Source: an uncultured Alphaproteobacteria bacterium (GTDB lineage: Bacteria; Pseudomonadota; Alphaproteobacteria; SHVP01). From it: a DNA stretch of 64,000 nt. Positions 13,211-32,937 of this stretch are shown piece by piece. Position 1 is the stretch's first letter. Each line of letters begins with the position of its first letter. The notes under the pieces are model-generated. The model was not told the DNA's origin and did not search any database. It saw only the letters and a list, made by a program, of their open reading frames with translations. A program made the translations under genes and the position numbers. Location: NCBI GenBank assembly GCA_964350495.1, contig CAYGKG010000005.1:25-64024 (forward strand), written 5' to 3'.

Positions 13211-14152
13211 CTACTCGTCGCGGTAGACGCGCTCCCGGCGCTCGTGCCGCTCTTGCGCTTCGATGCTCAGCGTTGCGATCGGACGCGCTTCAAGGCGTTT
13301 TAGGCCGATTGGCTCGTCGGTTTCCTCGCAATAGCCATAGGTCCCATCGACGATTCGGCCAAGCGCGGCATCGATCTTCGAAATCAGTTTTCGCTCGCGA
13401 TCGCGGGTGCGCAGTTCGAGGGAGCGATCGGACTCGGCGGACGCGCGGTCCGCTAGGTCGGGCTCCGACAGACTCGTCTCCTGGAGGTGCGCGAGGGTCT
13501 GGGTCGATTCCCGCAATAACTCGGCGCGCCAGTCGAGCAACTTGTTCTTGAAGTACGCCAATTGCTTGGGATTCATGAACGGCTCTTTTTCAGTCGGCTC
13601 ATAGTTTTTGGGAACGCGTGCGCGGGTATGCAACTGCGCCCGTTTACGCCGTTCCTCATCGGCCAATCGAGCCCGTTCGGCTGCAGCGACCTTAGAATCC
13701 TTGACGCGATCGAGCTCGTCTTGTTCGCGTTTCGCACTCGTCGCGCGCTTGGCCCTAGCGGTCCGAGGTTTATCGGACGCGCTCTTGCTCGGTACCGCGG
13801 CCTTGCGCTCCTTTGGCGCACTTGATCGCGCCGCAGCTTTTTTGACGGCTGCCTTGAGCGATTTGACCGCAGCTTTTGGCGCCTTCGGTTTAGCAGCAAC
13901 GCGTTTGCTCGGCGCCGGTTTGGCTTTCCGCGCTGGCGCCGCCTTTTTTACGGGGGCCGCTTTTTTTGCGGAAACTGACGCCTTCTTCGCCGGCGCTTTC
14001 TTCGGCGCCGGCGTCTTCCGCGTCGGCGCCTTTTTGGCAGACCGTTTCGGCTTGGGCGCGACCTTCTTGGAGGCTGCGCGGGCCGGCTTTTTCTTGGCCG
14101 GCTTCCCCTTGGTCTTTGAGACTGACTTTCGCGCCATCGTTCTGCTTGCCAT
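13211..14152 (-). CDS. dksA: DksA/TraR-family RNA polymerase-binding factor with a ~180-aa Lys/Ala/Pro-rich histone-H1-like N-terminal extension (start placed at the RBS-supported ATG, 14152)
   Basis: C-terminal 130 aa align to DksA (NPKQLAYFKNKLLDWRAELL...ELRTRDRERKLISKIDAALGRI...GYCEE...GLKRLEARPIATLSIE); N-terminal AKKAAPAKK repeats; only one Cys, so no C4 zinc finger. Confidence 0.75.
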   Translation of the reverse strand: MASRTMARKSVSKTKGKPAKKKPARAASKKVAPKPKRSAKKAPTRKTPAPKKAPAKKASVSAKKAAPVKKAAPARKAKPAPSKRVAAKPKAPKAAVKSLKAAVKKAAARSSAPKERKAAVPSKSASDKPRTARAKRATSAKREQDELDRVKDSKVAAAERARLADEERRKRAQLHTRARVPKNYEPTEKEPFMNPKQLAYFKNKLLDWRAELLRESTQTLAHLQETSLSEPDLADRASAESDRSLELRTRDRERKLISKIDAALGRIVDGTYGYCEETDEPIGLKRLEARPIATLSIEAQERHERRERVYRDE

Positions 14153-14285
14153 CAGTTCCCCGAAGCCTAGTGATACCGAAAAGACACACTTCGCCAAAAG
14201 GCGCCGCAGTATAAGGACGGGACCGCCGCCCCACAAGGGATGCCAGGAGGGTGCCTAAAGCTTTGTATTTGGCGGAAATATGCCT

Positions 14286-14711
14286 CTACAGGCGGTCGTA
14301 CTTGGCCAACTCCACCGCGGCGCGCAGTTCGATCTCATCGAGAATCTGTTGCAGCCGCGGATCGTCGATCACCTGTCGCTCCGCCTTCACCGCCTGGACC
14401 AGCGCACCGAGTTTGGCTCGGGGAATACCGCCGACCAATAGGCCAAGACGAACCTGGTCAAGAAGATCGAGCATTTCCCGTCCCCGGCCCATCGCCCGTT
14501 TTCGCCCGGTCAACGCGTCGCCAACCTCCTGAAGCGCGATCAGCGCATCGACCGGCGTCAAAGAGTTGGGGCCACGGACTTGCCCAGCCGCCGCCGGTTC
14601 AGCGTCGTTCGCCGAAATTTGATCGGAAAAGCCTGTCCCGCCGCCGCCACCGCTTTTGCGGGAGCGGCGGATCGCGTTGGCCTGTACCGGACCGGGCCCG
14701 TTAACTTTCAT
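14286..14711 (-). CDS. fliX: Flagellar assembly regulator FliX (start at the internal MKVNGPGP with SD AAGGAAGA)
   Basis: MKV.GPG start, Gly-rich segment, C-terminal ELRAAVELAK signature; divergent from flgI as in Caulobacter. Confidence 0.6.
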   Translation of the reverse strand: MKVNGPGPVQANAIRRSRKSGGGGGTGFSDQISANDAEPAAAGQVRGPNSLTPVDALIALQEVGDALTGRKRAMGRGREMLDLLDQVRLGLLVGGIPRAKLGALVQAVKAERQVIDDPRLQQILDEIELRAAVELAKYDRL

Positions 14712-14760
14712 CGACAGAGTCTTCCTTGCTGAAGCATGGTCGCGACTATCGCAGCCCATG

Positions 14761-14776
14761 GTTAACGGGTGGTTAA
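14761..14776 (-). promoter_or_regulatory. CtrA box TTAA-N7-TTAAC (reads TTAACCACCCGTTAAC on the minus strand) 50 nt upstream of fliX
   Basis: Exact consensus match, correctly oriented for fliX. Confidence 0.55.
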
Positions 14777-14899
14777 GAGCGACCGCCAATGCGGCAGCAT
14801 TTGCCGCCTGCCCCACTCCAACGGGCAGCGTTTGCCGTTCCGGACCCGGCGTTCCCCAACAATGCTATTTTGAATCAATAGGTTATGTCGATTTCGGGA

Positions 14900-14914
14900 T
14901 GGCACGGCCTTCGC
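14900..14914 (+). promoter_or_regulatory. sigma54-type promoter TGGCAC-N5-TCGC upstream of flgI
   Basis: -24 TGGCAC exact, -12 GC conserved, 40 nt upstream of the ATG. Confidence 0.5.
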
Positions 14915-14954
14915 AGTAGAAGAGCCAGGAAGAATTCCCGGTGGTAGTCAATCA

Positions 14955-16103
14955 ATGATCCCGCGCCCGAATAGCCTTCGTTTCATCCCGCTGCTGCGCC
15001 GTGCCGCATTGGCGATCGGCGGTAGCGTCTTGATTGCTTCTCTCGCCGCGCCTGCCGGCGCGGCCTCGCGGATCAAGGATATCGTCAATATCGAGGGCGT
15101 CCGCGACAACCTTCTGGTCGGTTACGGCTTGGTCGTCGGTTTGAACGGCACCGGCGACTCCCTCAGGAATTCGCCTTTCACCCGGCAAAGCCTTCAGGCC
15201 ATGCTGGAGCGCCTGGGCGTCAACGTGCGCAACGTCGATCTGAACACCGACAACGTTGCGGCCGTGATGGTCTCGGCCAATCTGCCGCCGTTCTCGCGTC
15301 AGGGGAGCCGGATCGACGTAACGGTCAGTACGCTGGGCGACGCGGAAAACTTGTTGGGCGGAACCCTTCTCGTGACACCGCTGCTCGGCGCCGACGGGCA
15401 AGTCTACTCCGTCGCCCAAGGGCCCGTTGTCGTTGGCGGCTTCTCGGTCCAAGGCGACGCGGCAACGTTCGTCAAAGGCGTCCCGACCTCAGGCAGGGTG
15501 CCCAATGGTGGCATTATCGAACAGGAGATCCCGTTCGAAATGGCCGATCTCGCCCGGATGCGGCTCGCACTCAAGAATCCGGACCTGACGACCGCACGTC
15601 GCGTTGCCGACGCGATCAACGCTTTTCTTGGCATCGAAGCCGCCGTGATGTCCGACCCCGGAACCGTCGTCCTCACGGCGCCGGCGGCCTACGCAAACGA
15701 TATGACGGCGCTCCTTGCCGACATCGAACAGCTCCGCGTCGAACCCGATCAGCCCGCGCGGGTCGTCATCGACGAAACGACCGGGGTCATCGTGCTGGGC
15801 AACGACGTCCGTGTGAACACCGTTGCGATTGCCCAGGGCAACCTAACCATTCGGGTGACCGAAACGCCGCAGGTTTCGCAGCCCGCGCCATTCGCTCAGG
15901 CCGGCGATACGGTCGTCGTGCCGCGCACCCAGATCGATGTCGTCGAGAGCAACTCGAAGCTGGCCGTGGTCGAATCCGGCGTCAACCTTCAGGAACTTGT
16001 CGACGGATTGAATTCGCTCGGTATCAGCCCGCGCGACATGATCTCCATTCTGCAAGCGCTGAAGACCGCCGGCGCACTGCAAGCAGAAATCGTGTTGATG
16101 TAA
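14955..16103 (+). CDS. flgI: Flagellar P-ring protein FlgI
   Basis: Signal peptide plus IKDIVNIEGVRDNLLVGYGLVVGLNGTGD. Confidence 0.9.
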   Translation: MIPRPNSLRFIPLLRRAALAIGGSVLIASLAAPAGAASRIKDIVNIEGVRDNLLVGYGLVVGLNGTGDSLRNSPFTRQSLQAMLERLGVNVRNVDLNTDNVAAVMVSANLPPFSRQGSRIDVTVSTLGDAENLLGGTLLVTPLLGADGQVYSVAQGPVVVGGFSVQGDAATFVKGVPTSGRVPNGGIIEQEIPFEMADLARMRLALKNPDLTTARRVADAINAFLGIEAAVMSDPGTVVLTAPAAYANDMTALLADIEQLRVEPDQPARVVIDETTGVIVLGNDVRVNTVAIAQGNLTIRVTETPQVSQPAPFAQAGDTVVVPRTQIDVVESNSKLAVVESGVNLQELVDGLNSLGISPRDMISILQALKTAGALQAEIVLM

Positions 16104-19985: not shown

Positions 19986-20000
19986 GCAATGCCTATGCCA
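19986..20000 (-). promoter_or_regulatory. sigma54 promoter (minus strand TGGCAT-N5-TTGC) about 90 nt upstream of flagellin 2
   Basis: GG-N10-GC spacing exact. Confidence 0.55.
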
Positions 20001-20862: not shown

Positions 20863-20877
20863 GCAAACGGTGTGCCA
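20863..20877 (-). promoter_or_regulatory. sigma54 promoter (minus strand TGGCAC-N5-TTGC, perfect) in the flaF2/flaF1 intergenic region
   Basis: Exact match to TGGCAC-N5-TTGC. Confidence 0.55.
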
Positions 20878-20935: not shown

Positions 20936-21298
20936 CTACGCCGCCAGCCCCTTCATGATCGACTCGTTCACTTGAATAAGGGCGTCGATCGTCACTTCAC
21001 CCTGTTCGGCGAGTTTGGAATGACGCTCCACCCAAATGGCGACCGAGATGATTTGGGCCTTGAGCGGGTCGGGCAACTGGTTCTGCGGTCGCGCCAGGTC
21101 TTCTTCCAACGCGTGCCATAGCCGACGGTTATCGTCCAGGGCCCGCAAGAACTCCGAGTCCTCTTTCACCTTTGCTTTGCTTGCTTCGAGGTCGCGCGTG
21201 ACCTGCTCGAAAAGACGGTACTCGGTCTTGCGCGCATCGAGTTCCGGCGGCGGCGCTAGGATCTCCGCCGCTGCTCCGGTTTGTTGGTTACTGTACAT
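20936..21298 (-). CDS. flaF: Flagellar biosynthesis regulator FlaF (copy 2)
   Basis: TEYRLFEQVT...NRRLWHAL...ISVAIWVERHS. Confidence 0.75.
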   Translation of the reverse strand: MYSNQQTGAAAEILAPPPELDARKTEYRLFEQVTRDLEASKAKVKEDSEFLRALDDNRRLWHALEEDLARPQNQLPDPLKAQIISVAIWVERHSKLAEQGEVTIDALIQVNESIMKGLAA

Positions 21299-21683
21299 AG
21301 TTCAACCTTTCTTTCTCGAAGGGTAGAAGCGACTTGCACGTCATCATCGCGGAATAGAACCGCTGCTCATGCACGTCATCGAGGATGCGATGGCATTTCT
21401 CCAGCACCCCTTTGGTTGAGATGGCGCACATAAAGTCGGTTACGAGATTGGTAAACTCCTCGTAGTAGTGACTCTCGAGTCCACCATCCAGGTACATCAT
21501 CATGATGGTGAAATAGATGCGCTTCACCGGTGTATTCGCTTCGTCCGGTTGGAGGACATCGCGCTCGCGAAGCAACGACACTTGGTTCTCGATAATGAGA
21601 TCCGACCTGCGGTCGCCGTTGATAAGAACACCACCGTTGAGAACGAACTTCTCGCCGGGCTTTAGCGTCAGTTTTAGCGGCAT
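21288..21683 (-). CDS. flbT: Flagellin synthesis regulator FlbT (copy 2); overlaps flaF2 by 11 nt
   Basis: MPLKLTLKPGEKFVLNGGVLINGDRRSDL. Confidence 0.8.
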   Translation of the reverse strand: MPLKLTLKPGEKFVLNGGVLINGDRRSDLIIENQVSLLRERDVLQPDEANTPVKRIYFTIMMMYLDGGLESHYYEEFTNLVTDFMCAISTKGVLEKCHRILDDVHEQRFYSAMMTCKSLLPFEKERLNYVQ

Positions 21684-21725: not shown

Positions 21726-22541
21726 TTATTGGAACAGCGACAGAATGATCTGCGGGGTCGCATTGGCGATCGATAGCGCCTGTACGCCCAGCTGCTGCTT
21801 GACCTGGAGTGCCGTCAGATTGGCGCTCTCCCGGGCCATGTCGGCATCCACGAGGTTGCCCACACCATCTGTAAGGATGTCCACCAGCTTGACCGTGAAC
21901 TCGGTCTGAACCTCCAGCCGCTTGGCCGAGGCACCGAGCGCCGCGAGGCGATCGGAGACCGACACGATAGCCGAGTTGACCGCTGTCAACGCCGCGCTGG
22001 CACCGGAACTGGTGAGCAGGGTGGTTGTATTGATCGCGAGACTCGTCGTGTCCATCTTCTGCGCGCTGACATTGATGATACTGCCGTCGACAGTACTCAA
22101 CACTTGGAACGTCACCGCGCTTTGGTTGATGATGTTGACGCCGTTGAATTCGGCCGTAGCGACGATCGTTTCAATTTGATCGCGCAACGCCGCGAAGTCG
22201 TTATGCAGCGCCGTTCGTGATGCCGCGTCGAGCTGGGATTGATTCGCCTGCACGACTTTGGCCTTCATTTCGATCATCAACTCGGAGATTGCCTTGCCGG
22301 CGTCGATTGCGACGTTAACAGTGGATTCTCCGCCTGCCAGTGCTGTGCCGACCGCTCGATAGCCGGCAATGTCACCGCGTTGGTTTTGGGCGATCGCATA
22401 AGTCGCTGCGTCGTCCTTCGGTCCGTTCACGCGCAGACCGGTCGTAATGTTCAGCTGGGTCTTCTCCAGCCTATTGTTTGTCGCGTTTAGATTCTGGAGA
22501 GCAATCGCCGCTCCCAGATTGGTATTTACCGACAAGACCAT
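21726..22541 (-). CDS. Flagellin (271 aa), more divergent third paralog
   Basis: Flagellin N/C helices (...LQVKQQLGVQALSIANATPQIILSLFQ). Confidence 0.9.
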   Translation of the reverse strand: MVLSVNTNLGAAIALQNLNATNNRLEKTQLNITTGLRVNGPKDDAATYAIAQNQRGDIAGYRAVGTALAGGESTVNVAIDAGKAISELMIEMKAKVVQANQSQLDAASRTALHNDFAALRDQIETIVATAEFNGVNIINQSAVTFQVLSTVDGSIINVSAQKMDTTSLAINTTTLLTSSGASAALTAVNSAIVSVSDRLAALGASAKRLEVQTEFTVKLVDILTDGVGNLVDADMARESANLTALQVKQQLGVQALSIANATPQIILSLFQ

Positions 22542-22613
22542 CGTTTCTGTCTCCTCTTCCGAGGCGGCTCAAAGCCTAGGGGTTTCAAATGGCATACAGC
22601 CGAGTCCCTAAGC

Positions 22614-22628
22614 GCAATGGACGTGCCA
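22614..22628 (-). promoter_or_regulatory. sigma54 promoter (minus strand TGGCAC-N5-TTGC, perfect) about 73 nt upstream of flagellin 3
   Basis: Exact consensus. Confidence 0.6.
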
Positions 22629-22744
22629 CCTCGGCGTCAGCGACCGAAACCGCCTCGCAGTACGTTGTTTTTACTGAATAAATGCCGATCTCTGTCGACG
22701 CCTCGTGATCGACACGCACGGCCAACCTCGCGCGCGCGCTAGCG

Positions 22745-22795
22745 AATAATTGCCAGATCACGAATCTTTTGCCGCGCGCCGTAGCAATAATTGCC
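22745..22795. promoter_or_regulatory. Two copies of G(C/A)AATAATTGCC spaced 41 nt apart (22745-22754, 22786-22795) in the flagellin3 / GT41 divergent region; candidate enhancer or regulator sites
   Basis: Direct repeat seen in sequence, about 120-170 nt upstream of the sigma54 promoter. Confidence 0.25.
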
Positions 22796-22891
22796 TTCGA
22801 TCCGCAGCGATGGGTTGAAGCCGTCATGCCGGTTACGTTGCAGCGGCCTTCACTAAGGATTTGTTAATCGTAACGGGCCTAGAAATGCGTC

Positions 22892-25852
22892 ATGAACGCG
22901 CCCGCTCAGGAGTTCTTCGCCGCTGGCCTGTCGCACCACCGCGCCGGCCGTATCGAGGAAGCCGACAAATACTATCTACAAGCGATCGAGGCCGATCCTG
23001 CCTGTTGCGATGCTTTGCTCAACCTCGCGGGCATTCGTATTTCGGCGAATCGTCTCGACGAAGCCGAAGCCCTGCTGACGACGGCACAGGCGGTCAGACC
23101 GGTCGACACCAAGATCCTCACAGCGCTCGCGAACGTTTACCAGGCGAAGGGCGACTACGCCCAATCTGAGTCATACTACCGCGACGCGATCGCGCGCAGC
23201 CCCGATCTCGCCCTTGCGCACGCGAACCTGGGGCGTCTCCTCTATCGAACCGGTCGGTCGGCAGAAGCAATCGCGAGTTATCTTGCCGCGCTCGATCTCG
23301 ACCCGACGTTGGCGACGGCCCACGCCAACCTCGGCGCCGCCCTCGTCGCCAACCAGCGCTTCGACGAAGCCGAAATGTCCTTAGGCCTCGCACTGAAGCT
23401 CGCCCCCCGAGACCCCGATATCCATCTCAACGTCGGTCACCTGCGGTTCGCCCGAGAGGATTACGCCGGTGCGCTCGAACACTTCACCCGCGCCTCAGAG
23501 TTACGGATGGGGTGGGCCACCGCCCATCTCAATATCGGCGCCGCGCTCCACCGTTTAGGCAAGTACGAAGCAGCCGAGCGGGAATTCAACCGTGCCGTCG
23601 CGCTGGACCCGAACAACGCGGAAGCGCTTCGAGGGCTCGGTACAGCATTGATTTCATTGGATAAAATTGAAGCCGCCGAGAAGGTCCTGGTGAAATCGGA
23701 TGCGCTTGCTCCCGATCATCCACAAACCCAATTTCTTCTCGGTCAGGTCTTCGTTGCGACCAAGGACTTCGAACGCGCAGTCCGGCACAATACCGGTGTC
23801 GTTCAGCGCCTACCTAATCTCCTCGAAGGTCGGCTGAACCTCGGCCACGCGCTTCAAGCCTTGCACCGTCATGCCGAAGCGATCGAGCAATTCCAGGCAG
23901 CGATCGCCATCGACGCGACTTCGGCTCAAGCCTTCAACAATCTCGGCAATTCGTTGGGCGCCGTCGGCCGGAACGACGATGCGCTCGATGCCTACCGAAA
24001 GGCGATTGAGATCGACGCCACGCTGGCCGTCGCCCATATCAACTTCGGCAATACCTTGCGGCAAATGGGCCGTCATGGAGAGGCATTCGAGGAATTTCAG
24101 CTAGCGATCGAGATCGACCCCGACGATCCCCGCGCGCTGAACGGCATGGGACTAGCTTACCAAGCGTTCAACCGGCAAGCGGAGGCAATCGAAACGTTCA
24201 AGCGCGCCATCGCCGTCGACGACTCCTACCCGGAGGCGATGAACAACTTAGCGATCGCCTACCAGCAACTCGGCCGCTATCACGATGCGATATCGACCTA
24301 CAACGACCTGACCAAGAAGCACCCGGAGCTGTCGCAGGCCTATTTCAACCTAGGCAGCCTTCTCCAGCTCCTGAGCCGCCACGACGAAGCAGTAACCGCG
24401 TTTCGCGAAGCGTTGAACCGGAACGTAGGCAATAACGTCGTCTACCCCTACCTGGCCCACGGCTTGATGCAGCAGTGCAGCTGGGACAACCTCGAAGCAA
24501 TCATTTCCCGCGTGATCGAGAACACCGAACACGAAATAGCCCGCGGCCAAGGCGTCTCGATTTCGCCCTTCGGTTTGCAAAGCATGCCGGCCAGTCCGGA
24601 TCTTCGTTTTCGGACCGCGCAGCACGTCGCGCGACGCGCCGAACGCGAGGTTCAGGACAGCCGTAAGCGGCTGGGCCCCCTCACCTACAAACACCCAACG
24701 GACGGCAAACTGAAGATCGGCTTTCTATCGCCGGATTTCCGCTTCCATAGCGTCGCCGTCGCCTTCCAAGGTGTCCTCGAACATCGCGACCCCGAGCGAT
24801 TTCACTATGCCGCCTATGCCGTCACGACGTTCGGCAAGGACGATTTGACCCGGCACTTTTCGGAAACATTCGACAGTTGGACCGATATCACGCCGATGTC
24901 CTATGTCGATGTCGCAAGAAAGATGGTCGATGACGGTGTCAACGTGCTGATCGATCTAGCCGGTCACACCCGCGGCGGCAGCCCCGAGGTCCTCGCCCTT
25001 CGTCCCGCGCCCGTTCAAGCCCACTGGCTGGGGTTTTCGTCGACCACCGGCGCCGCGTATATCGACTATCTGATCACCGATCGGATCCAGCTTCCGCCGG
25101 AAGACCAACAGTACTGTAGCGAAAAACTGGTCTATCTCCCCCACACCTTCATGGCCGCATCGCGGCCCCCCGTGGCGGTGGAAACGTTTACGCGCGCAGA
25201 CTTCGGCTTGCCGGACGACGGGTTCGTTTTCGCCAACTTCAATTCGCACTACAAGTTCTACCCGACGCTCTTTGCGATTTGGATGAGGCTGCTGCGCCAG
25301 ATTCCAGGGAGCGTGATGTGGTTCATGTCAGGAACGAAAACCAGTCGAAGAAACCTCAAGCGAGAGGCGCAGGCCCGTGGAATCGATCCCGGCCGTCTCG
25401 TGTTCTCCGACACGATCGCCCATCCTCGCCATCTTGCCCGCTTGCCCTTGGCCGATCTCGCCCTCGATAACCTGCACCACGGCGGCGGCGTAACGACCAC
25501 GGACTCGCTTTGGGCTGGGGTGCCGGTTCTGACGCTCTACGGCGACACACCGCCGGCACGAAACGGCGCCACGTTGGTTAGCGCCGTCGGCGCCCCGGAA
25601 CTGATCGCCTACTCGCTCGACGAGTACGAAAAGAAGGCAACGATGTATGCGCGCGAACCGGATCGACTCGCCGCGCTACGGGCGAAATTGCGCGCCAATC
25701 GGGACACCGAGCCACTGTTCGATATCGACCGGCTGACGCGCCACTTTGAGAGCGCCTGCGAGATGATGTGGCAGAACTATCTTGCCGGGAACGAACCTCG
25801 CCCCTTCGATGTCCCGGCCCAACCGGCCACGTCGAGAAAACGCGCTGGCTAG
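22892..25852 (+). CDS. TPR-repeat protein fused to a GT41 (O-GlcNAc transferase/SPINDLY-like) glycosyltransferase domain; putative flagellin glycosyltransferase of the FlmG type
   Basis: N-terminal ~500 aa of TPR repeats; C-terminal KIGFLSPDFRFHSV...LIDLAGHT...FANFNSHYKFYPTLFAIWMRLL...HGGGVTTTDSLWAGVPVLT is OGT-like GT-B; adjacent to three Ser/Thr-rich flagellins. Confidence 0.7.
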   Translation: MNAPAQEFFAAGLSHHRAGRIEEADKYYLQAIEADPACCDALLNLAGIRISANRLDEAEALLTTAQAVRPVDTKILTALANVYQAKGDYAQSESYYRDAIARSPDLALAHANLGRLLYRTGRSAEAIASYLAALDLDPTLATAHANLGAALVANQRFDEAEMSLGLALKLAPRDPDIHLNVGHLRFAREDYAGALEHFTRASELRMGWATAHLNIGAALHRLGKYEAAEREFNRAVALDPNNAEALRGLGTALISLDKIEAAEKVLVKSDALAPDHPQTQFLLGQVFVATKDFERAVRHNTGVVQRLPNLLEGRLNLGHALQALHRHAEAIEQFQAAIAIDATSAQAFNNLGNSLGAVGRNDDALDAYRKAIEIDATLAVAHINFGNTLRQMGRHGEAFEEFQLAIEIDPDDPRALNGMGLAYQAFNRQAEAIETFKRAIAVDDSYPEAMNNLAIAYQQLGRYHDAISTYNDLTKKHPELSQAYFNLGSLLQLLSRHDEAVTAFREALNRNVGNNVVYPYLAHGLMQQCSWDNLEAIISRVIENTEHEIARGQGVSISPFGLQSMPASPDLRFRTAQHVARRAEREVQDSRKRLGPLTYKHPTDGKLKIGFLSPDFRFHSVAVAFQGVLEHRDPERFHYAAYAVTTFGKDDLTRHFSETFDSWTDITPMSYVDVARKMVDDGVNVLIDLAGHTRGGSPEVLALRPAPVQAHWLGFSSTTGAAYIDYLITDRIQLPPEDQQYCSEKLVYLPHTFMAASRPPVAVETFTRADFGLPDDGFVFANFNSHYKFYPTLFAIWMRLLRQIPGSVMWFMSGTKTSRRNLKREAQARGIDPGRLVFSDTIAHPRHLARLPLADLALDNLHHGGGVTTTDSLWAGVPVLTLYGDTPPARNGATLVSAVGAPELIAYSLDEYEKKATMYAREPDRLAALRAKLRANRDTEPLFDIDRLTRHFESACEMMWQNYLAGNEPRPFDVPAQPATSRKRAG

Positions 25853-25883: not shown

Positions 25884-27590
25884 CTAGGGCCTTGGATCGG
25901 TGTCAGCGATCGCGCCTGCCAGGTGCCAGGGACGCCCATCCACTAAGTCCGTCGCGAAGAAGCAGAACCGGTTAGCAGACGCCATCGGATAAATTGGCGC
26001 GGTCATCACCGGCGCATCGCGATCCGCGTATGCGGCGATCGGCCAGCTTAGGGTCCGCGCACGACGTTGCCCGTCGGCCCGTTGGGTGCCCTGGGTGAAG
26101 TCCTTGTCCAGCGTGACGATCAAGCTGGTTCCCGCGCGCGATGGCTCGGTCGCGACCACGAGGTTGAGCCGGTTTTCCGCTGCACGTTCCAGCAGACCGG
26201 TATCGATTTCCCAACGTTCTAGAACGCGCGTCGGCACACCGACAATTGCGGCATCCTTCAAGGCGAGCAGCCTGAACGATTCGACAATCGCCGCGTCGCC
26301 GCCGACCACGAGACCGACCCGGCCCTGCGGCAGATCGATCGTGCCGAAGCCATCGGCATAGGCCGTAACCCAAGGATGACGCGCACAGGTATGCACGGCG
26401 TCTTGATGGAACACGACCCCATCACGCCCGATCAAGACACCCCGGTGCATGAACTTGCCGCCATCCTCATGCACCACCGATGCGGCCACAAGGCAATCCC
26501 GCTGAACTGCGGACAGTGCCGCGCGCACCGCCGCGACGCCGTCGCGACAGATTGCCGCCGCCTTCGGCGCGTCGCTGACTTTGTCGCTAGGAAGAAAGGC
26601 GAGCTCCGGCAACGTCAGAAATTCGACACCGCGCCCAATCGCATCGGCCACGGCGGCGAGAAGGTCGCCCCGCGCCCCGTTCACAACCCCGGCCAGCAAC
26701 CTCTCCGCACCGGCGATGTCGCGGTGGGGAGTCGGTGCCGCCGCGATCGCCCCATAGAGTTCCGGCCGCCGGTCGGCAAAGAGATCCGAGCCGTCCGGAC
26801 GCCCTTTCTTCGTCGCCTCCTCCAGGTCGATATCGGCCCAGACCACGGCCTCGGTCTCGACCGGCGCGCGGGCCAGCACGGTGCCGTCGGGCGCCACAAT
26901 CTGACTGGCGCCGCCGCCCATCATCTCGCGCGCATCCTGCGGATCGCGGTCGCCGGCAAGGGCCGGCACGAGCGCTTCGGGAACCAGCCGCCCGACCTTG
27001 TTGGCAGCGGCGACGAAGACCTTGTTTTCGGCTGCGCGCACCGGTAGGTGCAGCCAGTCCTCGTCGGGCGCAAAGGAACACAAGCTGTTGGACAAAAGCT
27101 GCGCGCCGCGCAGCGACAGGCCGCGCGCGACCTCCATCGACACACCGTCCATGCAGGAATACATACCGATCTTGCCGAACGGGGTCGCCATGATGTCGGC
27201 CGGCCGATCAGGCTTTTCGAAGAAGAAATTTTCGCCCGCAATGAGAAAGCTCTTGCTCGATTCGCCCAGCATGTCGCCTTGCGGCCCGAACATGTGGTTG
27301 GTATTGCGAACGGCATTATTGCGATGGCGCACGGTAACGTTGACCTGGATCATGCATTGCAGTTCCTTCGCCTTGTCGGCGATCGCCTTAAGGAAGGCAC
27401 CGTCGGTCTGCTCGGCGACATCGTAGCAATGCTCGGAATCGCGGTAGAGTGGCGGGTGATTGCAGTATTCCGGCAAGACGATCAGGTCCGGATCGCAATC
27501 GGCCTGCGCCTTGTCGATCATCCGGAGGCAGGTTTGTAGGTTCGCCTCGACGTCGTCCGTCACCTCGAACTGAGCAACCGCTACGCGCAT
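25884..27590 (-). CDS. Tandem double carbon-nitrogen hydrolase (two nitrilase-superfamily domains in one ~569-aa protein)
   Basis: Two successive CN-hydrolase-like segments (VAVAQFEV...LPEY... and a second ...LTLPELAF...); RBS GGGAAGGAAG before the ATG at 27590. Confidence 0.6.
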   Translation of the reverse strand: MRVAVAQFEVTDDVEANLQTCLRMIDKAQADCDPDLIVLPEYCNHPPLYRDSEHCYDVAEQTDGAFLKAIADKAKELQCMIQVNVTVRHRNNAVRNTNHMFGPQGDMLGESSKSFLIAGENFFFEKPDRPADIMATPFGKIGMYSCMDGVSMEVARGLSLRGAQLLSNSLCSFAPDEDWLHLPVRAAENKVFVAAANKVGRLVPEALVPALAGDRDPQDAREMMGGGASQIVAPDGTVLARAPVETEAVVWADIDLEEATKKGRPDGSDLFADRRPELYGAIAAAPTPHRDIAGAERLLAGVVNGARGDLLAAVADAIGRGVEFLTLPELAFLPSDKVSDAPKAAAICRDGVAAVRAALSAVQRDCLVAASVVHEDGGKFMHRGVLIGRDGVVFHQDAVHTCARHPWVTAYADGFGTIDLPQGRVGLVVGGDAAIVESFRLLALKDAAIVGVPTRVLERWEIDTGLLERAAENRLNLVVATEPSRAGTSLIVTLDKDFTQGTQRADGQRRARTLSWPIAAYADRDAPVMTAPIYPMASANRFCFFATDLVDGRPWHLAGAIADTDPRP

Positions 27591-27625
27591 GACGCTTCCT
27601 TCCCGTTCCATTTGGTCCTCGGCGT

Positions 27626-28321
27626 TCAGGACGCCGCAACAACCGTTTTCCTAAGCTCGGCCAGATCATAGTAGGTTCCGTCGCGATCCGGACTCCCCTC
27701 GACCTCGACACGGGTCAGAATCATGTCCGGGCCCGTCGTCCAGATCCGCAGGCCAAAACCGAATTGGGTGTGCCAAATAAACTCCGAACTCGGGAAATCG
27801 CCCGCGCGGGTCGTGCGCACCTCGTCCTTCACGTATTCGGCGGTATTTTCGGTATGCCCGCCGTGGTCCAGGGACTTGCCGTTCCAGGTGTGCGACACCG
27901 TGTGGATGTAAATCGGCTGGGGTTCGCGGTGGGTACGGTCCATGAAACACATCTTCCACGCTTCGTGCATGACTGGATGGAAGCCAAGGGTCATATGCGG
28001 CGGCGCCGGAAATGCGGCGTGATCCATCTCGCCTGTGTGGTTCCACACCCACGACAGCAGTTTATCGCCAACCACACGGCGCAACACGGTGCCCTGGGCT
28101 TCGCCTTTGAAAAAGAGGCGCCCCATCGCCTCAATGGGACGCCAGTCGGCGCCTACCATCTGGTTCACGTCGCGCAGCAGGTCCCCTTTGGGCGACTTGG
28201 TAACGGTCCGCATCGTGCGGCTGCCATCGGGGTTTCGAGTGATGAGGAAGCGCTCGTAATCGTGCCGGCTACCGTCCGGTAGAACGATGTCGAGCTGCCC
28301 CTGATAAATCACGATGCTCAT
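27626..28321 (-). CDS. Hypothetical 231-aa protein (no family recognised) inside the sugar-modification operon
   Basis: ORF with strong SD (GGGGGAG) at the ATG 28321; His/Trp-rich. Confidence 0.45.
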   Translation of the reverse strand: MSIVIYQGQLDIVLPDGSRHDYERFLITRNPDGSRTMRTVTKSPKGDLLRDVNQMVGADWRPIEAMGRLFFKGEAQGTVLRRVVGDKLLSWVWNHTGEMDHAAFPAPPHMTLGFHPVMHEAWKMCFMDRTHREPQPIYIHTVSHTWNGKSLDHGGHTENTAEYVKDEVRTTRAGDFPSSEFIWHTQFGFGLRIWTTGPDMILTRVEVEGSPDRDGTYYDLAELRKTVVAAS

Positions 28322-28384
28322 CTCGCGCACTCCCCCGCCAAACGAGAAGACTAGCATTCGGCGGGAAAAGCGAAAAACGCCGGC

Positions 28385-29248
28385 CTAGGCCGCCAAGACG
28401 CTCCGGAAGACGTCCTTGGCACTTGGCGGCTGAAGATCGAATTCATCCACCTCGACCTGCATGTCGAGACTGGAGAACCGCGGCAGGGCGTCGAAGCCAA
28501 TGGAACCGGGGATTGCTTCGACCGGACTAATCAGTCGCGGGTCGGCGCCTTCAATTTCCGCAACAACGTGCGCTAGGGACAAATAGCTCGAGTCTTCCTG
28601 CGAAGAGGCATGGAATACCCCTGACAGCCGGTCAGAAAGAACCATCTCGATCGTTTCGAGTGCAAAATTCATGGAAATCGGCGCCAGTGGGAGATTGCTG
28701 AACGGCCCGATCCGCCTACCGGCTTTTAGATCGCGGCGCCAGTTTTGCACAATTGCGGCGCCCGGCGTCATGACCTTGGTGAGCCGCACAACGGCGCCGG
28801 TGCCGCGGTCGATAAGGTGGCGCATCCCCGCCTCCGCCAACGCCTTGTGTCGCCCGTATTCCGAGACCGGACACGGACTGCTGTCGCGGTCCCGCCGCGC
28901 GATAGCGCCGTCGAACACTTGATTGCTCGATAGATAAAGAACATAGGCGCCCTGCGCCGCCATCTTCCACGCGAGCCCGACGGTGCCACGGACATTGACC
29001 TGCATCGCGCGGGCCGGGTCCTGAGCGCAGTCGAGGATCGACGTCACACCGGCACAGATCAGGACCGCGTCAACCTCGGGCAGGACTTCCCAACTGGCCG
29101 GGATCGATAGGTCGAGGAAGTGGAGATTGCTGTCCCGCCGTCGGCTGGTTCCGACGACCGTCACGCCCTGCGCCGCGAAATGGGCACAGGCCGCTCGACC
29201 CAGCGCCCCATCGGCGCCGACGACAAGCAGCCTGTTGGGCCACATCAT
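28385..29248 (-). CDS. NAD(P)-dependent sugar epimerase/reductase (short-chain dehydrogenase/RmlD-like Rossmann protein)
   Basis: LLVVGADGALGRA...GVTVVGTSRR Rossmann motif; start overlaps the upstream methyltransferase stop (ATGA). Confidence 0.6.
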   Translation of the reverse strand: MMWPNRLLVVGADGALGRAACAHFAAQGVTVVGTSRRRDSNLHFLDLSIPASWEVLPEVDAVLICAGVTSILDCAQDPARAMQVNVRGTVGLAWKMAAQGAYVLYLSSNQVFDGAIARRDRDSSPCPVSEYGRHKALAEAGMRHLIDRGTGAVVRLTKVMTPGAAIVQNWRRDLKAGRRIGPFSNLPLAPISMNFALETIEMVLSDRLSGVFHASSQEDSSYLSLAHVVAEIEGADPRLISPVEAIPGSIGFDALPRFSSLDMQVEVDEFDLQPPSAKDVFRSVLAA

Positions 29249-29934
29249 CTCTTGGGACCGCAGCACAGCGCGAAATAGTAGTGCGCCATTTGGTAGAAAC
29301 CGGTGTGCACGACCTCGTCGTTCATCGAGAACACGAACACATTCCCGAAATACCTGGCGAGCAGGTCTTTGAGTTCGGTCGCAGTCTTACAATTGATGTG
29401 CCCGGCTTTGCTGGCCGGACTGGCATAGGCTTGCGAGGCCAGGCTAGGTGAACCGACAATCAAAACGCCGGAGTCGGTCAGCGACCCGGCGAGGTTCGCC
29501 ACAAAGGCTTCCTCGTTCGCAGGATCGATATGTTCGATCACGTCCAACGTGTAGGCGCCGTCAAACCGATGGGGCTGCGCCGGCGGATAGGGTCCGGTCA
29601 GCATGTCGTGGATTGCCGTCGACATCGGCCAAGCCGGCGCCATGCGCTCTTCGGCATCGGCAACGAACACCGGATCGAAGTCCAGCGCGGTCACCCACTC
29701 CACTTCCTGTTGCACAAGGCGCGTCCCGAAGGCATCGGCGCAACCGACCTCCAGCACATTCTGGGCACCGCTCAACATCTTAGCCACGAACTTGTAACGC
29801 GCCAGGAGAATAGCCAAGCGGCGCGGATCGTCGTGCCAGACTTGGTTGGTCATCAGACCGAGCCGGGTAACGCCGTCGTCGTTCGCGATATCCAATGCGG
29901 CCTGGTATTGCGGTTCGCGGGTTTTGGCGGTCAT
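29245..29934 (-). CDS. Class I SAM-dependent methyltransferase
   Basis: VLEVGCADAFGTRLV (motif I) and a typical MTase fold. Confidence 0.6.
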   Translation of the reverse strand: MTAKTREPQYQAALDIANDDGVTRLGLMTNQVWHDDPRRLAILLARYKFVAKMLSGAQNVLEVGCADAFGTRLVQQEVEWVTALDFDPVFVADAEERMAPAWPMSTAIHDMLTGPYPPAQPHRFDGAYTLDVIEHIDPANEEAFVANLAGSLTDSGVLIVGSPSLASQAYASPASKAGHINCKTATELKDLLARYFGNVFVFSMNDEVVHTGFYQMAHYYFALCCGPKR

Positions 29935-29953
29935 GGCGCAGTCTTTCCAGATG

Positions 29954-30619
29954 CTAGGAGAAGTAGATGCAACCGTAGTCGCCGGTGTACCCGGCCTGGG
30001 CGAACGCCCATTCCCACTCGGCCGGTTTCATGAAGGCGCGGCAGGTCAACTGCCAGTAGAGAAGGTTCGCCTTCTCTATCTCATCGCGGTAGGACTCGAT
30101 GGTCACGTGCGCAGCCCGGCGGGAGACTCGATCGATCTCCTTTAGCGCCGCATGCAATTCATAATTATATAGATTATGCAGTGTGTTAATGGAGTAAACG
30201 AAATCAAAAGATGAGGTATCATAGGGCAGCCGGTCGGCCACCGAACCAACGGTCAGCCCGTCGCGCACTTCTTCCTTTGCGTGTGCGATGGCGTAGTCCG
30301 AGATGTCTATTCCCGCGACCGTCGCCTGCGGCAGAACCTGGGTGAATTCGTAGAGAAGAAACCCCTTGCCGCAACCGATGTCGAGTATCCGCGCGTCAGG
30401 TTTGAGACCGTAATGCCCAACCATCGCTTCGGCAACGGGTCGCCAGCGCCCGTCATAGCGATACCCGCCGAAGCCGTAGCGACGGTCACCATCCCAATAG
30501 TCTTCGCCATAGCGGCAAGCCACCTCGGCGCAGGCAGCTTTGTCGTGCTCGACGACGCGCTGAATGTAGTCGCGCTTGGTCGCGGTGTGCAAACGCCCGA
30601 CGAAGTCGACGTAGGCCAT
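29954..30619 (-). CDS. Class I SAM-dependent methyltransferase (the 389-aa ORF in the track is over-extended; true start is the ATG at 30619 overlapping the upstream stop)
   Basis: ARILDIGCGKGFLLYEF motif I; ATGA overlap with the upstream gene. Confidence 0.65.
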   Translation of the reverse strand: MAYVDFVGRLHTATKRDYIQRVVEHDKAACAEVACRYGEDYWDGDRRYGFGGYRYDGRWRPVAEAMVGHYGLKPDARILDIGCGKGFLLYEFTQVLPQATVAGIDISDYAIAHAKEEVRDGLTVGSVADRLPYDTSSFDFVYSINTLHNLYNYELHAALKEIDRVSRRAAHVTIESYRDEIEKANLLYWQLTCRAFMKPAEWEWAFAQAGYTGDYGCIYFS

Positions 30620-31029
30620 CAGACCGCACGCGCCATTTCGGTGGGGGCGAACGCGTTCACCCGCAAGATATCCTCGAAGCGGCCGATATCGACCGCCGAC
30701 CGCAACGTCAGATTCTCTAGCGCGGCATGGAGTTCGCGGCCCTGCTCCAGAATCTGAGTGTAGATACGCCGCCGTTTGGACTCGTCGTTTGGCAGCATGA
30801 ACATCGAGAACAGAATGACCCCATCCAAGGTTGGAAGCTCTTCCATCACGGCATTCAGCATCATGTAACAGCCCGGCATCGCGTATTCCGTGGCGGACAG
30901 TTTGAACGCGATGCCGTTGCGTTGGGCGTAGTCGCGGATTACCAAGTTCTGGACTTGCTGAGGCGTACGTTCGCCCCGCACCGGCCGCGACCCGATATAG
31001 CCGCGGTAACCGCCCTGCATCGCGGTCAT
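30619..31029 (-). CDS. Small (136 aa) sporadic-carbohydrate-cluster protein (LIC12192-family-like), translationally coupled to the oxygenase and methyltransferase
   Basis: Gene trio oxygenase / small protein / MTase with overlapping stop-start codons; family assignment from memory, unverified. Confidence 0.4.
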   Translation of the reverse strand: MTAMQGGYRGYIGSRPVRGERTPQQVQNLVIRDYAQRNGIAFKLSATEYAMPGCYMMLNAVMEELPTLDGVILFSMFMLPNDESKRRRIYTQILEQGRELHAALENLTLRSAVDIGRFEDILRVNAFAPTEMARAV

Positions 31030-31892
31030 GCGAACCCTCCGGGCAATTGGTATTCCATACCGATCCGCGTCGCGGGCCGCAGCGTGATCGGTTCGAAGAA
31101 CTCGCCCAGACGTTTGTCCGCATAGGGCGAAAACAAACTCTTGAAGCGGCAGTTCATCGACCAGCGGGATTCGGACTCCACGTTGATGCGGTTGCCGTGC
31201 ATCAGCGATTGGGCGAACAGCAGAACCTCACCGAACCGTATATCGATCCATTCGACATCGGGTTCGATGGCGCGAAACAGATCCTCTGCGCTGCGGTCGG
31301 CGAATTCGTGCAGCCGCGCGCTCATCGCCCGGTCCGGTTCGGGGGGCAAGAGATACATGGATTTGGTCCTGTAGCAGTCGACGAGTGGCAGCCAGACGAC
31401 GATTTCAAACGGCGAATCGCCGCTCCAGACGTCGGCATGGACCGGTAACAGCGAGGAATCGTCTGAGGGTAGCTGGATCGACAGGTTGACCCGGCGCTGC
31501 ATCGCCAGTTCGTTGCCGACCAATGCCTCGATACTGCGTCGCGCCAGGCTGAAATAGGCCTCGCGCAGCCACGGGCTGGCGTTTACCGCATTGTGGACCG
31601 CAAGACGCAGCGCGTTGAGGTCGCTGACGCTGACCTTGGTATGAATGCCGTTGAGAAACGCCGCCGCAGGGCCCGCATCGGTGAGGCCAAGGTGCCGAGC
31701 GGCTTGCATGGTGACGGCGGCCTGGATGCGCTCCAACTGCGCAGGATCCTCGACCGGCTGAATGACGTAGCCGTCGCGGAGAAACCGAGCACCGAGCGCC
31801 GCGTCGGCGAGAGAGAGAAAATCGCCGGATTGCGTGTCCTGCGGTAGTTTGTCAGGGGCGCGTGGGGTGGCTTGGGCAGCCTGAACACTCAT
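31026..31892 (-). CDS. 2OG-Fe(II) oxygenase (PhyH-like; sporadic carbohydrate cluster type)
   Basis: HADVWSGDSPFEIVVWLPLVDC with an HxD iron-binding motif; ~288 aa. Confidence 0.55.
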   Translation of the reverse strand: MSVQAAQATPRAPDKLPQDTQSGDFLSLADAALGARFLRDGYVIQPVEDPAQLERIQAAVTMQAARHLGLTDAGPAAAFLNGIHTKVSVSDLNALRLAVHNAVNASPWLREAYFSLARRSIEALVGNELAMQRRVNLSIQLPSDDSSLLPVHADVWSGDSPFEIVVWLPLVDCYRTKSMYLLPPEPDRAMSARLHEFADRSAEDLFRAIEPDVEWIDIRFGEVLLFAQSLMHGNRINVESESRWSMNCRFKSLFSPYADKRLGEFFEPITLRPATRIGMEYQLPGGFA

Positions 31893-32016: not shown

Positions 32017-32937
32017 CTAGTCTTCCTCGCGCCCCTTGGCCGCAACCATCAACGTATCGAAGGGTGCATCCTCGGTGGCCGCGGGCGGGCGGAATTGGTC
32101 CTCCCCCTCCTCGGCCTCGTCGTCGGCGGCCGTCCGAGCGTTCGCTTTGGTTTGGCGGGTTTCCAGCGGTTCTTCAACCGAGATCCCTGCGGCTTGCGCC
32201 GGCTCCTCGTCAACCGCTTCGAGGGTTTCCGCCGCCGCGTCGGTGGCTTCGGCTTCGGCTTCGGCTTCGGCTTCGGCTTCGGCTTCGGCTTCGGCTTCGA
32301 CCTCAGCGTCCGGATCGTATTCTTCCTCCTCGTCGCCGTCGGTGTTGGGCTTCTCGCCTCGACTTGCAGCGGCCTGCGCTTCGGCATCGCGTACGAGGTC
32401 CGCTGGCGGTTCCGCGCTCAAAAGCCCAGCGGCCTTCAATTCGTCGATACCCGGCAAGTCTTGGACGTCCTGGAGGCCGAAGTGTTCGAGGAAGTCCTGG
32501 GTCGTGCCATAGGTCAGCGGCCGACCCGGCGTTTGCTTGCGCCCGCGTAGCCGCACCCAGCCCGACTCCATCAAGACATCCAACGTGCCTTTGCTGAGGG
32601 ACACCCCGCGCACCTCTTCGATTTCGGCGCGCGTGATCGGTTGGTGGTAAGCAATAATCGACAGCGTTTCGACGGCGGCGCGGCTCAATCGGCGCTGCAC
32701 GGTCTTTTCCCGCTCCATCAGGAAGGCTAGATCGGGCGCCGTTCTAAACGCCCAACCGCCGGCAACCTGCAGCAGGACGATCCCGCGTTCGGCGTAAAGC
32801 GCCGTCAAATCCGCCATGAGTGCCGGCACGTCGGTCTCGTCGGGCAACCGGGCCGCTAGGCTCGCTTCATCCAACGGCTCGACCGCCGCGAACAACAAAG
32901 CCTCGGCCATGCGGATCAACTGGGCGTCGTCACTCAT
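32017..32937 (-). CDS. scpB: Segregation and condensation protein ScpB with acidic C-terminal tail containing (EA)10
   Basis: ALLFAAVEPLDEASLA..., winged-helix ScpB core. Confidence 0.85.
   Translation of the reverse strand: MSDDAQLIRMAEALLFAAVEPLDEASLAARLPDETDVPALMADLTALYAERGIVLLQVAGGWAFRTAPDLAFLMEREKTVQRRLSRAAVETLSIIAYHQPITRAEIEEVRGVSLSKGTLDVLMESGWVRLRGRKQTPGRPLTYGTTQDFLEHFGLQDVQDLPGIDELKAAGLLSAEPPADLVRDAEAQAAASRGEKPNTDGDEEEEYDPDAEVEAEAEAEAEAEAEAEAEATDAAAETLEAVDEEPAQAAGISVEEPLETRQTKANARTAADDEAEEGEDQFRPPAATEDAPFDTLMVAAKGREED
32245..32300. repeat. Perfect hexanucleotide tandem repeat (GGCTTC)x9-10 inside scpB, encoding (EA)n on the minus strand
   Basis: Seen directly in sequence. Confidence 0.95.

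Follow-up and report, generated by a model that had tools for sequence, protein, structure and literature searches.

FlmG of Caulobacter crescentus is a protein of 596 residues that joins an N-terminal, flagellin-binding tetratricopeptide repeat (TPR) domain to a C-terminal GT-B glycosyltransferase domain, with pseudaminic acid (Pse) as the donor sugar (PMC7591256). It uses CMP-Pse or CMP-activated legionaminic acid (Leg), and its gene sits with Pse genes (bioRxiv 2022.03.25.485807). The flagellins of the Caulobacter type are known to be glycosylated in all their paralogues (PMC7591256). Here we analyze a 64-kb stretch of DNA (64,000 nucleotides, called the window) from an uncultured alphaproteobacterium, contig CAYGKG010000005.1 of assembly GCA_964350495.1, in which a gene for a TPR protein of the glycosyltransferase family GT41 lies next to flagellin genes. 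We refer to them as the GT41 gene and the GT41 protein. A first-pass annotation of the window had described FlmG in agreement with the literature cited above (flagellin-binding TPR domain, GT-B domain, Pse), and had proposed that the GT41 protein is a distinct and larger enzyme with the same logic.

Enzymes of the GT41 family have been connected with flagellin before. Of the 42 types of flagellin glycosylation island in enterobacteria, 14 contain GT41/SPINDLY-type enzymes, most of which are fused to a methyltransferase domain (PMC4875605). In Dickeya dadantii, the 'O-linked GlcNAc transferase' gene Dda3937_03424 lies between fliA and fliC and is needed for the increase in FliC mass. Mutants in this gene and in a second glycosyltransferase gene of the same interval brought the FliC mass of 32,170 Da down to 31,034 and 28,890 Da (PMC6637903). 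Thus GT41 flagellin glycosyltransferases have already been predicted in Enterobacteriaceae and are supported by mutants in Dickeya. In Synechococcus, an Ogt protein is needed for pilin glycosylation (bioRxiv 2021.07.06.449578). Arabidopsis SPINDLY (SPY), a protein O-fucosyltransferase of GT41, uses GDP-fucose, and its Tyr744 blocks N-acetylglucosamine (GlcNAc) (PMC9715652). Outside GT41, Pseudomonas FgtA (PA1091) was considered as the nearest characterised flagellin glycosyltransferase and set aside, because it is a GT2 enzyme fused to a phosphotransferase (PMC11833859). Burkholderia FlmQ (BCAL0111) is described just as a 'predicted flagellin glycosyltransferase'.

We consider it likely, with a probability of about 0.7, that the GT41 gene of the window encodes a cytoplasmic protein glycosyltransferase of the O-GlcNAc transferase (OGT) type that is dedicated to flagellin. 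What is new, judged from the sequences, is that an uncultured clade of alphaproteobacteria has a full-length OGT architecture that is very likely dedicated to flagellins of the Caulobacter type.

Architecture and predicted fold of the GT41 protein

The GT41 protein matches the Pfam family PF13844 (Glyco_transf_41) with an E-value of 2e-76 and 257.9 bits, against a cut-off of 25, and it matches many TPR families too. The profile search against GT41 that the first-pass annotation had suggested was thus clearly positive. In a phmmer search of PDB sequences, human OGT (hOGT, 7yeh) matched the protein end to end with an E-value of 1e-116. The other matches were SPY at 1e-77, Xanthomonas XcOGT at 2e-62 and Thermobaculum TtOGT, and Drosophila OGT also aligns with the catalytic domain. 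The intervening domain of the metazoan enzymes is missing from the GT41 protein, in which residue ~760 bridges OGT residues 712 and 823.

An AlphaFold2 (AF2) model was built from 17 orthologues, with a mean predicted local distance difference test (pLDDT) of 89.3 and a predicted template modelling score (pTM) of 0.74. The model predicts 30 regular helices over residues 3–510, equal to 15 TPRs, followed by two Rossmann-like lobes of a GT-B fold. When it was searched with Foldseek against the PDB, OGT, SPY and XcOGT came out on top, XcOGT with a template modelling (TM) score of 0.86–0.87, a root-mean-square deviation of 3.6 Å and 28% identity. The open reading frame (ORF), the PF13844 match, the OGT match and the predicted fold all agree with the TPR plus OGT-like protein of the first annotation. 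The GT41 protein is a genuine member of the GT41 (OGT-type) enzyme family with a complete architecture.

Neither a signal peptide nor a membrane segment is present in the sequence, which fits action in the cytoplasm. The Maf domain (MAF_flag10, DUF115) is absent from the Pfam matches of the GT41 protein and its neighbours. The catalytic domain alone, when searched against NCBIfam, gave just a negligible match of 15 bits to the N-glycosyltransferase (NGT) equivalog, which has a cut-off of 1000.

Linkage to flagellin within one clade of GT41 proteins

The first flagellin gene diverges from the GT41 gene with 350 nucleotides between them. In all, the window holds three flagellins upstream of the GT41 gene, along with two pairs of FlbT and FlaF genes and an extensive flagellar cluster (FliP, FliM, FlgF, FlgG, FlgA, FlgH, FliX, FlgI and a rod-binding protein). 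The adjacency to flagellins noticed at first pass is therefore real. The flagellins are of the Caulobacter D0/D1-only type, and the first aligns over its full length with the Caulobacter FljK/L/M/N filament structures, which are equally long, with an E-value of about 1e-56. The central 60 residues of the flagellins are 32–42% Ser/Thr, with 19 such residues in the first flagellin and 23 in the second. The NxS/T sequons NQS, NVS and NTT are also found in the flagellin centre.

A scan guided by a profile, with each GTDB species represented by one genome, gave 80 GT41 loci, all from uncultured metagenome-assembled genomes (MAGs) and mostly labelled Alphaproteobacteria, Rhodospirillaceae, Sneathiellales or Ferrovibrionaceae. 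The neighbours of the GT41 gene in the window were searched by tblastn against these 80 loci. In 25 orthologous loci, the gene immediately upstream of GT41 is a flagellin gene; a divergent flagellin 220–395 nucleotides upstream, with FlbT/FlaF, was found in 22. A neighbour-joining tree was made from the last 470 residues of the homologues, with the TPRs left out. In this tree all GT41 proteins of ~910–1050 residues, including that of the window, form one clade, and the paralogues of 670–890 residues lie elsewhere. Several of the shorter paralogues share a MAG with a member of the long clade (locus pairs L011/L051, L015/L044 and L014/L045).

Flagellar genes occur within 3 kb upstream in 26 of the 27 clade members having upstream sequence, compared with 1 of 34 homologues outside the clade (Fisher p=5.8e-15). 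Therefore the flagellin linkage is not a matter of chance. This strong, clade-specific synteny argues for the flagellin glycosyltransferase that the first-pass annotation had thought likely. At one locus (L081), the FlaF-FlbT-flagellin/GT41 module lies amid proteases, a thioesterase, a ParA-like gene, a sulfotransferase and Fur, and the remainder of the flagellar cluster is absent. The presence of the module in this foreign context indicates that the conserved unit is the four-gene module and not the flagellar supercluster. The flagellar context of a 799-residue relative from Burkholderiales (P0079) was checked, and none was found.

Outside the flagellin-linked clade, the sole GT41 gene with flagellar neighbours is in a Desulfobacterales MAG (L054, 10001–16400). 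It encodes 818 residues, and weak FlbT-like (34–37% identity) and flagellin-like (27%) matches lie at least 1.2 kb downstream of it. These neighbours may represent an independent association or a binning artefact.

Conserved residues of the TPR arm and the catalytic domain

In hOGT, the asparagine ladder of the TPRs binds the backbone of extended substrate peptides. The TPRs of the GT41 protein carry Asn at a 34-residue spacing (residues 44, 81, 112, 146, 316, 350, 384, 417, 452 and 486). Conservation was judged over 17 orthologues with 42–91% identity, and the ladder Asn are kept in at least 15 of them. In the alignment, five ladder Asn pair with Asn in the C-terminal TPRs of hOGT. The median length is 983 residues in the flagellin-linked clade and 740 residues in the other GT41 homologues. 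The long TPR arm thus sets the flagellin-linked clade apart, which is consistent with the TPRs selecting the acceptor. NGT-type enzymes are not known to have a TPR arm, and this counts against an N-linkage.

The catalytic domain retains the residues expected from hOGT. H619 (H558 in hOGT), Y787/K788 (Y841/K842), H847/R850 (H901/R904), T868 (T922) and D871 (D925) are invariant in all 17 orthologues. The catalytic Lys (K842 of hOGT, K665 of SPY) is essential in both SPY and OGT (PMC9715652). The counterpart of hOGT H498 is Phe.

The position of hOGT C917 was identified as a gate in the SPY structure paper, where Cys lets GlcNAc in; the gate is Tyr or Phe in SPY, XcOGT, TtOGT and HMW1C, which use other donors or have no detectable O-GlcNAc activity (PMC9715652). 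The GT41 protein has His863 at the gate followed by Gly-Gly-Gly, a pattern that matches neither the Cys nor the Tyr/Phe type. The H863-GGG-V sequence is invariant or nearly so among the orthologues. An active-site signature specific to the flagellin-linked clade was sought, and none was found, as the H-G-G-G-V-T-T loop also occurs in unlinked paralogues. Since this signature is shared, the catalytic domain itself gives no pointer to flagellin.

The donor is probably a UDP-sugar, not necessarily UDP-GlcNAc, since the His and Arg that contact uridine are retained. Since sugar genes are absent from the vicinity of the module in some lineages, a housekeeping nucleotide sugar is the likely core donor. 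It is probably not a nonulosonate, and we know of no characterised GT41 enzyme that uses a CMP-sugar. Among ~58 ORFs scanned in the 64-kb window, there were no PseB/C/H/G/I/F or Leg pathway genes, no Pse, Leg or Neu synthase, no nucleotidyltransferase and no sugar 4,6-dehydratase, which fits the earlier suggestion that the sugar could differ from Pse. It had also been suggested that a missing nonulosonate or sugar-nucleotide pathway would refute a role in flagellin glycosylation. This argument is invalid, because housekeeping UDP-sugars could supply a GT41 enzyme, and sugar genes are missing from the neighbourhood of some orthologous loci.

A candidate glycan-tailoring block downstream

Seven tightly packed genes on the minus strand (25884–31892) are convergent with the GT41 gene. 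The first-pass label of a sugar-modification operon was roughly right: the block includes the RmlD-like short-chain dehydrogenase/reductase (SDR), two methyltransferases and an oxygenase, and with them a nitrilase-fold protein and a 243-residue protein. One ORF, mechanically called as a methyltransferase of 389 residues, is an over-extension; the GC3-based gene call (GC at third codon positions) and reading of the ORF resolve it into the TIGR04323 gene and a methyltransferase of ~222 residues. The SDR was rejected as an RmlD equivalog, with 92 bits for TIGR01214 being under the cut-off of 224. Its PDB matches are MAT2B and RmlD at 1e-12 to 1e-9. PDB sequence searches with the TIGR04323, TIGR04324 and 243-residue proteins gave nothing useful. 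A nucleotidyltransferase, a 4,6-dehydratase and a nonulosonate synthase are all missing from the block.

The oxygenase, TIGR04323, methyltransferase, methyltransferase and SDR genes stand behind the GT41 gene in 14 loci, at 42–79% identity of the GT41 protein (L001, L002, L005–L007, L009, L017, L024, L027–L029, L033, L060 and L068). The genes for the 575-residue and 243-residue proteins separate the GT41 gene from the tailoring genes solely in the nearest relatives (L001–L004 and L009). The oxygenase/TIGR04323/methyltransferase/SDR block is probably a glycan-tailoring cassette. The repeated occurrence of TIGR04323 and TIGR04324 genes behind flagellin-linked GT41 genes suggests a part in the tailoring of the flagellar glycan. 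A full-text search of the accessible literature for 'sporadic carbohydrate cluster', the name of these two families, returned no paper.

A marine 'Rhodospirillaceae' subclade is without the oxygenase/methyltransferase block. There, a Sulfotransfer_1 gene often lies a few genes downstream of the GT41 gene (L081 at 14365–15195 on the minus strand, L010, L014–L016, L026, L031 and L055), and a sulfated flagellar glycan is a possibility in this subclade. The sulfotransferase gene also adjoins Fur and ABC transporter genes.

Proposed mechanism and alternative explanations

From these data we infer a scheme of acceptor, O-linkage, donor and downstream block. By analogy with human OGT, newly made flagellin would be bound as an extended stretch by the inward-facing Asn ladder of the 15-TPR superhelix. 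The Ser/Thr-rich central segment of flagellin would then be passed into the cleft that separates the N-cat lobe from the C-cat lobe. Transfer of the sugar from a nucleoside diphosphate sugar would be inverting, and Lys788 would stabilise the diphosphate as it leaves. After its modification, the flagellin would be exported and polymerised. In many lineages, the oxygenase, the two methyltransferases and the SDR would tailor the sugar, either on the nucleotide sugar or on the protein.

A more specific form of this scheme is that a full-length OGT orthologue holds the place that FlmG has in Caulobacter, threads unfolded flagellin through the TPR tunnel with its Asn ladder, and adds a methylated or oxidised sugar, not described before, that the 'sporadic carbohydrate cluster' makes or completes. 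Taken as a whole this is conceivable, though we doubt it. If true, it would provide a defined physiological substrate for bacterial OGT homologues and the first function for TIGR04323 and TIGR04324.

Several observations weigh against a flagellin-dedicated transferase. The clade member L008 has no flagellar neighbours. A motif scan of the control region found no sigma54 motif oriented toward the GT41 gene; a promoter common to flagellin and GT41 was not found there, and no GT41 promoter was identified. The residues of hOGT that contact UDP-GlcNAc are replaced (C917 by H863, H920 by G866, T921 by V867, Q839 by S785 and K898 by H844), and, judged by the GlcNAc and diphosphate contact residues of hOGT, the sequence is not that of a strict O-GlcNAc transferase. 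The active-site loop H-G-G-G-V-T-T is common to paralogues without linkage to flagellar genes. In addition, the bacterial homologues XcOGT and TtOGT show little or no activity in vitro (PMC9715652).

Some of these observations would suit a general, multi-substrate OGT or a SPY-like regulator, for which the adjacency of flagellin is incidental or reflects shared regulation only. The protein has the full-length architecture of eukaryotic OGT, an enzyme with thousands of substrates; its catalytic signature is identical in paralogues without flagellar linkage, and L008 carries the gene away from flagellar genes. We regard such a general role as unlikely. The flagellin linkage is specific to the clade, and it persists to 42% identity and through relocation of the module. 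Besides, the separate and shorter GT41 paralogues in the same genomes could fill general roles.

Alternatively, the protein may bind flagellin through its TPRs as a regulator or chaperone, in the FlbT/FlaF circuit or as a bifunctional protein like GmaR, with glycosyl transfer being secondary or absent. GT41 always travels with FlbT, FlaF and flagellin, and Listeria GmaR reportedly combines flagellin glycosylation with anti-repressor activity. Direct binding of flagellins by FlmG TPR domains (PMC7591256) also favours a role of this kind. However, neither the catalytic Lys, His and Asp nor the residues that bind the nucleotide vary across the clade, indicating selected enzymatic activity, and the glycan-tailoring cassette is co-conserved in 14 loci. 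A regulator or chaperone with little or no transferase function is therefore improbable.

Another target (hook, FlaF, FlbT, or pilin as for Synechococcus Ogt, bioRxiv 2021.07.06.449578) or an N-linkage like that of HMW1C/NGT is very improbable, for although GT41 includes N-glycosyltransferases (PMC3012730; PMC9715652) and the flagellin centre has NQS, NVS and NTT sequons, the NGT equivalog reaches 15 bits where its cut-off is 1000, an OGT-style Asn ladder is present, and the immediate, always divergent partner is the flagellin gene. We thus favour the flagellin-dedicated O-glycosyltransferase.

Control region and other features of the window

The region between the flagellin and GT41 genes contains a perfect sigma54-type promoter, TGGCAC-N5-TTGC, at 22614–22628 on the minus strand, oriented toward the flagellin gene. 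Its GG/GC core is invariant across nine orthologous intergenic regions. Two palindromes, CGAATAATTGCC (22743–22754) and GCAATAATTGCC (22784–22795), lie between this promoter and the GT41 start. Both contain AATAATTGCC, and GCAATAATTGCC is a perfect GCAAT/ATTGC inverted repeat. Both are partly kept in orthologous intergenic regions, and they are candidate enhancer sites of the FlbD/NtrC type.

Sigma54-type motifs, two perfect and two with one mismatch, occur in the window at 22614–22628 (−), 20863–20877 (−), 19986–20000 (−) and 14900–14914 (+), just 5′ of the flagellin, FlaF, second flagellin and flgI genes. The lineage appears to use RpoN for its late flagellar genes, like Caulobacter. The features of the locus are listed in Table 1.

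Table 1. Positions of the GT41 gene, its flagellar neighbours and the downstream block in the window.
Feature	Position	Strand	Evidence or remark
Third flagellin, 273 residues	18145-18966	-	Flagellin paralogue
Second flagellin, 273 residues	19071-19892	-	71% identity to the first flagellin
FlaF	20936-21298	-	PF07309
FlbT	21288-21683	-	PF07378; FlbT/FlaF (20936-21683) are flagellin translation regulators accompanying the flagellin/GT41 module
First flagellin, proposed acceptor, 271 residues, D0/D1-only, Caulobacter type	21726-22541	-	Flagellin_N, Flagellin_C
Divergent control region between flagellin and GT41 genes, 350 nucleotides	22542-22891	.	Sequence, motif scans
GT41 gene	22892-25852	+	ATG start, 986 residues
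TPR superhelix, residues 1-512, 15 TPRs, proposed flagellin-binding arm	22892-24427	+	Pfam TPR families, AF2 helices
GT41 catalytic domain (linker helices, N-cat and C-cat lobes) plus stop codon	24428-25852	+	PF13844, alignments, AF2, Foldseek
575-residue protein with two nitrilase-superfamily (CN_hydrolase) halves	25884-27611	-	PF00795, two stretches
243-residue protein	27626-28357	-	No family or PDB match
RmlD/MAT2B-like NAD(P)-dependent SDR	28385-29266	-	PF04321 E=3e-24; GxxGxxG and YxxxK motifs
Second class I S-adenosylmethionine (SAM) methyltransferase, 229 residues	29245-29934	-	60-84% identity in 14 loci
Class I SAM methyltransferase, ~222 residues	29954-30622	-	Methyltransf_11/25/31 on the C-terminal 150 residues; NCBIfam
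LIC12192-family sporadic carbohydrate cluster protein, 136 residues	30619-31029	-	TIGR04323, 153 bits (cut-off 55)
2-oxoglutarate (2OG)-Fe(II) oxygenase, 'sporadic carbohydrate cluster'	31026-31892	-	TIGR04324, 329 bits (cut-off 150); HxD...H motif

An ORF of 1170 residues (2906–6418, minus strand), flanked in the flagellar cluster by fliP and an MgtE_N-like gene, is without a match in Pfam or NCBIfam. Its N-terminus is hydrophobic, its linkers are rich in Pro and Ala, and its C-terminal half is helical and TPR-like. Its product may be an unrecognised flagellar component. Between flgH and fliX lies a DksA-family ORF of 341 residues (13211–14236, minus strand), with the DksA domains confined to residues 225–333. 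The start may be over-called, or else a long extension is present at the N-terminus of the protein.

Beyond the downstream block are ScpB, ScpA, UvrA and other housekeeping genes. The scpB gene (32017–32937, minus strand) contains a perfect hexanucleotide repeat, (GGCTTC) x 9.2, at 32245–32299. The repeat encodes a (Glu-Ala)9 run in the acidic C-terminal tail and is potentially slippage-prone.

Comparison with known systems

An FlmG orthologue for comparison was retrieved via the published primer NK-74 (L084, 1692–3488 on the minus strand, 598 residues). A first metagenome scan with an internal flmG primer gave no match, and the other published flmG primers had no match in L084 within 3 mismatches, which marks this protein as a diverged FlmG orthologue. 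Its identity is based on the identical 20-nucleotide start, the length of 598 residues versus 596, the TPR content, and the flanking cytidylyltransferase and GNAT genes. The primer-encoded peptides FQIPGVR and SGQDLR read FHIPGTR and SDQDLK in it, and they too count toward its identity.

The L084 FlmG and the GT41 protein share generic TPR-TPR similarity alone, with 25–30% identity and E=2e-9. The GT41 protein was rejected as a member of the FlmG family: PF13844 is absent from L084, and the best BLASTP E-value between its C-terminal part and the GT41 catalytic domain was 6.2. Both proteins carry TPRs in an N-terminal domain, joined to a GT-B domain at the C-terminus, and both are cytoplasmic and tied to 273-residue, multi-paralogue flagellins of the Caulobacter type. 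Unlike FlmG, the GT41 protein has 986 residues instead of 596–598 and a catalytic domain unrelated in sequence, and no Pse or Leg genes were found among the scanned ORFs of the window. By sequence comparison, the GT41 protein is analogous, not homologous, to FlmG. The first-pass view of a distinct, larger enzyme with FlmG-like logic is thus borne out, and for flagellins of the Caulobacter type there would be at least two TPR-glycosyltransferase solutions without relation to each other, FlmG and GT41.

Compared with the metazoan OGTs of human and Drosophila, the GT41 protein is colinear over its full length and shares the Asn ladder and the equivalents of Lys842, Tyr841, His558, Asp925, His901 and Arg904. 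In contrast to human OGT, it has no intervening domain, has 15 TPRs versus 13.5, and has changed residues at the UDP-GlcNAc contacts. OGT has thousands of substrates, whereas the GT41 protein appears to have one dedicated substrate, encoded by its neighbour.

For the catalytic half, the closest structural matches are XcOGT (XCC0866, PDB 2jlb/2vsy) and TtOGT (5djs). They likewise lack the intervening domain and have a non-Cys residue at the hOGT C917 gate (PMC9715652). XcOGT has ~3.5 TPRs, while the GT41 protein of the window has a long TPR arm, a gate of His and not Tyr, and a clear candidate acceptor. No physiological substrate is known for XcOGT and TtOGT. These crystallised enzymes are still short of substrates and robust activity. 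The GT41 protein and the flagellin 350 nucleotides away would offer a simple two-gene system for studying the choice of substrate by OGT-type TPRs and the sugar used by a bacterial GT41 enzyme whose donor pocket is rich in His and Gly. Similarly, placing the 'sporadic carbohydrate cluster' families, so far uncharacterised, in the context of flagellar glycans would provide a first functional handle on them.

SPY resembles the GT41 protein in combining TPRs with a GT41 domain, in having no intervening domain, and in its Thr-rich phosphate loop, GTTTT in SPY versus GVTTT in the GT41 protein. The GT41 protein is less similar to SPY (E=1e-77) than to OGT (1e-116), and its gate is His863.

The GT41 enzymes of Dickeya and of the enterobacterial islands are also encoded beside fliC, with methyltransferase and oxidoreductase genes. 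The idea of a GT41 enzyme beside fliC that glycosylates flagellin is already published, and in this respect our gain is incremental. As described, those enzymes belong to Gammaproteobacteria with a large FliC, whereas the clade of the window is alphaproteobacterial and pairs a full OGT-like TPR arm with D0/D1-only flagellins.

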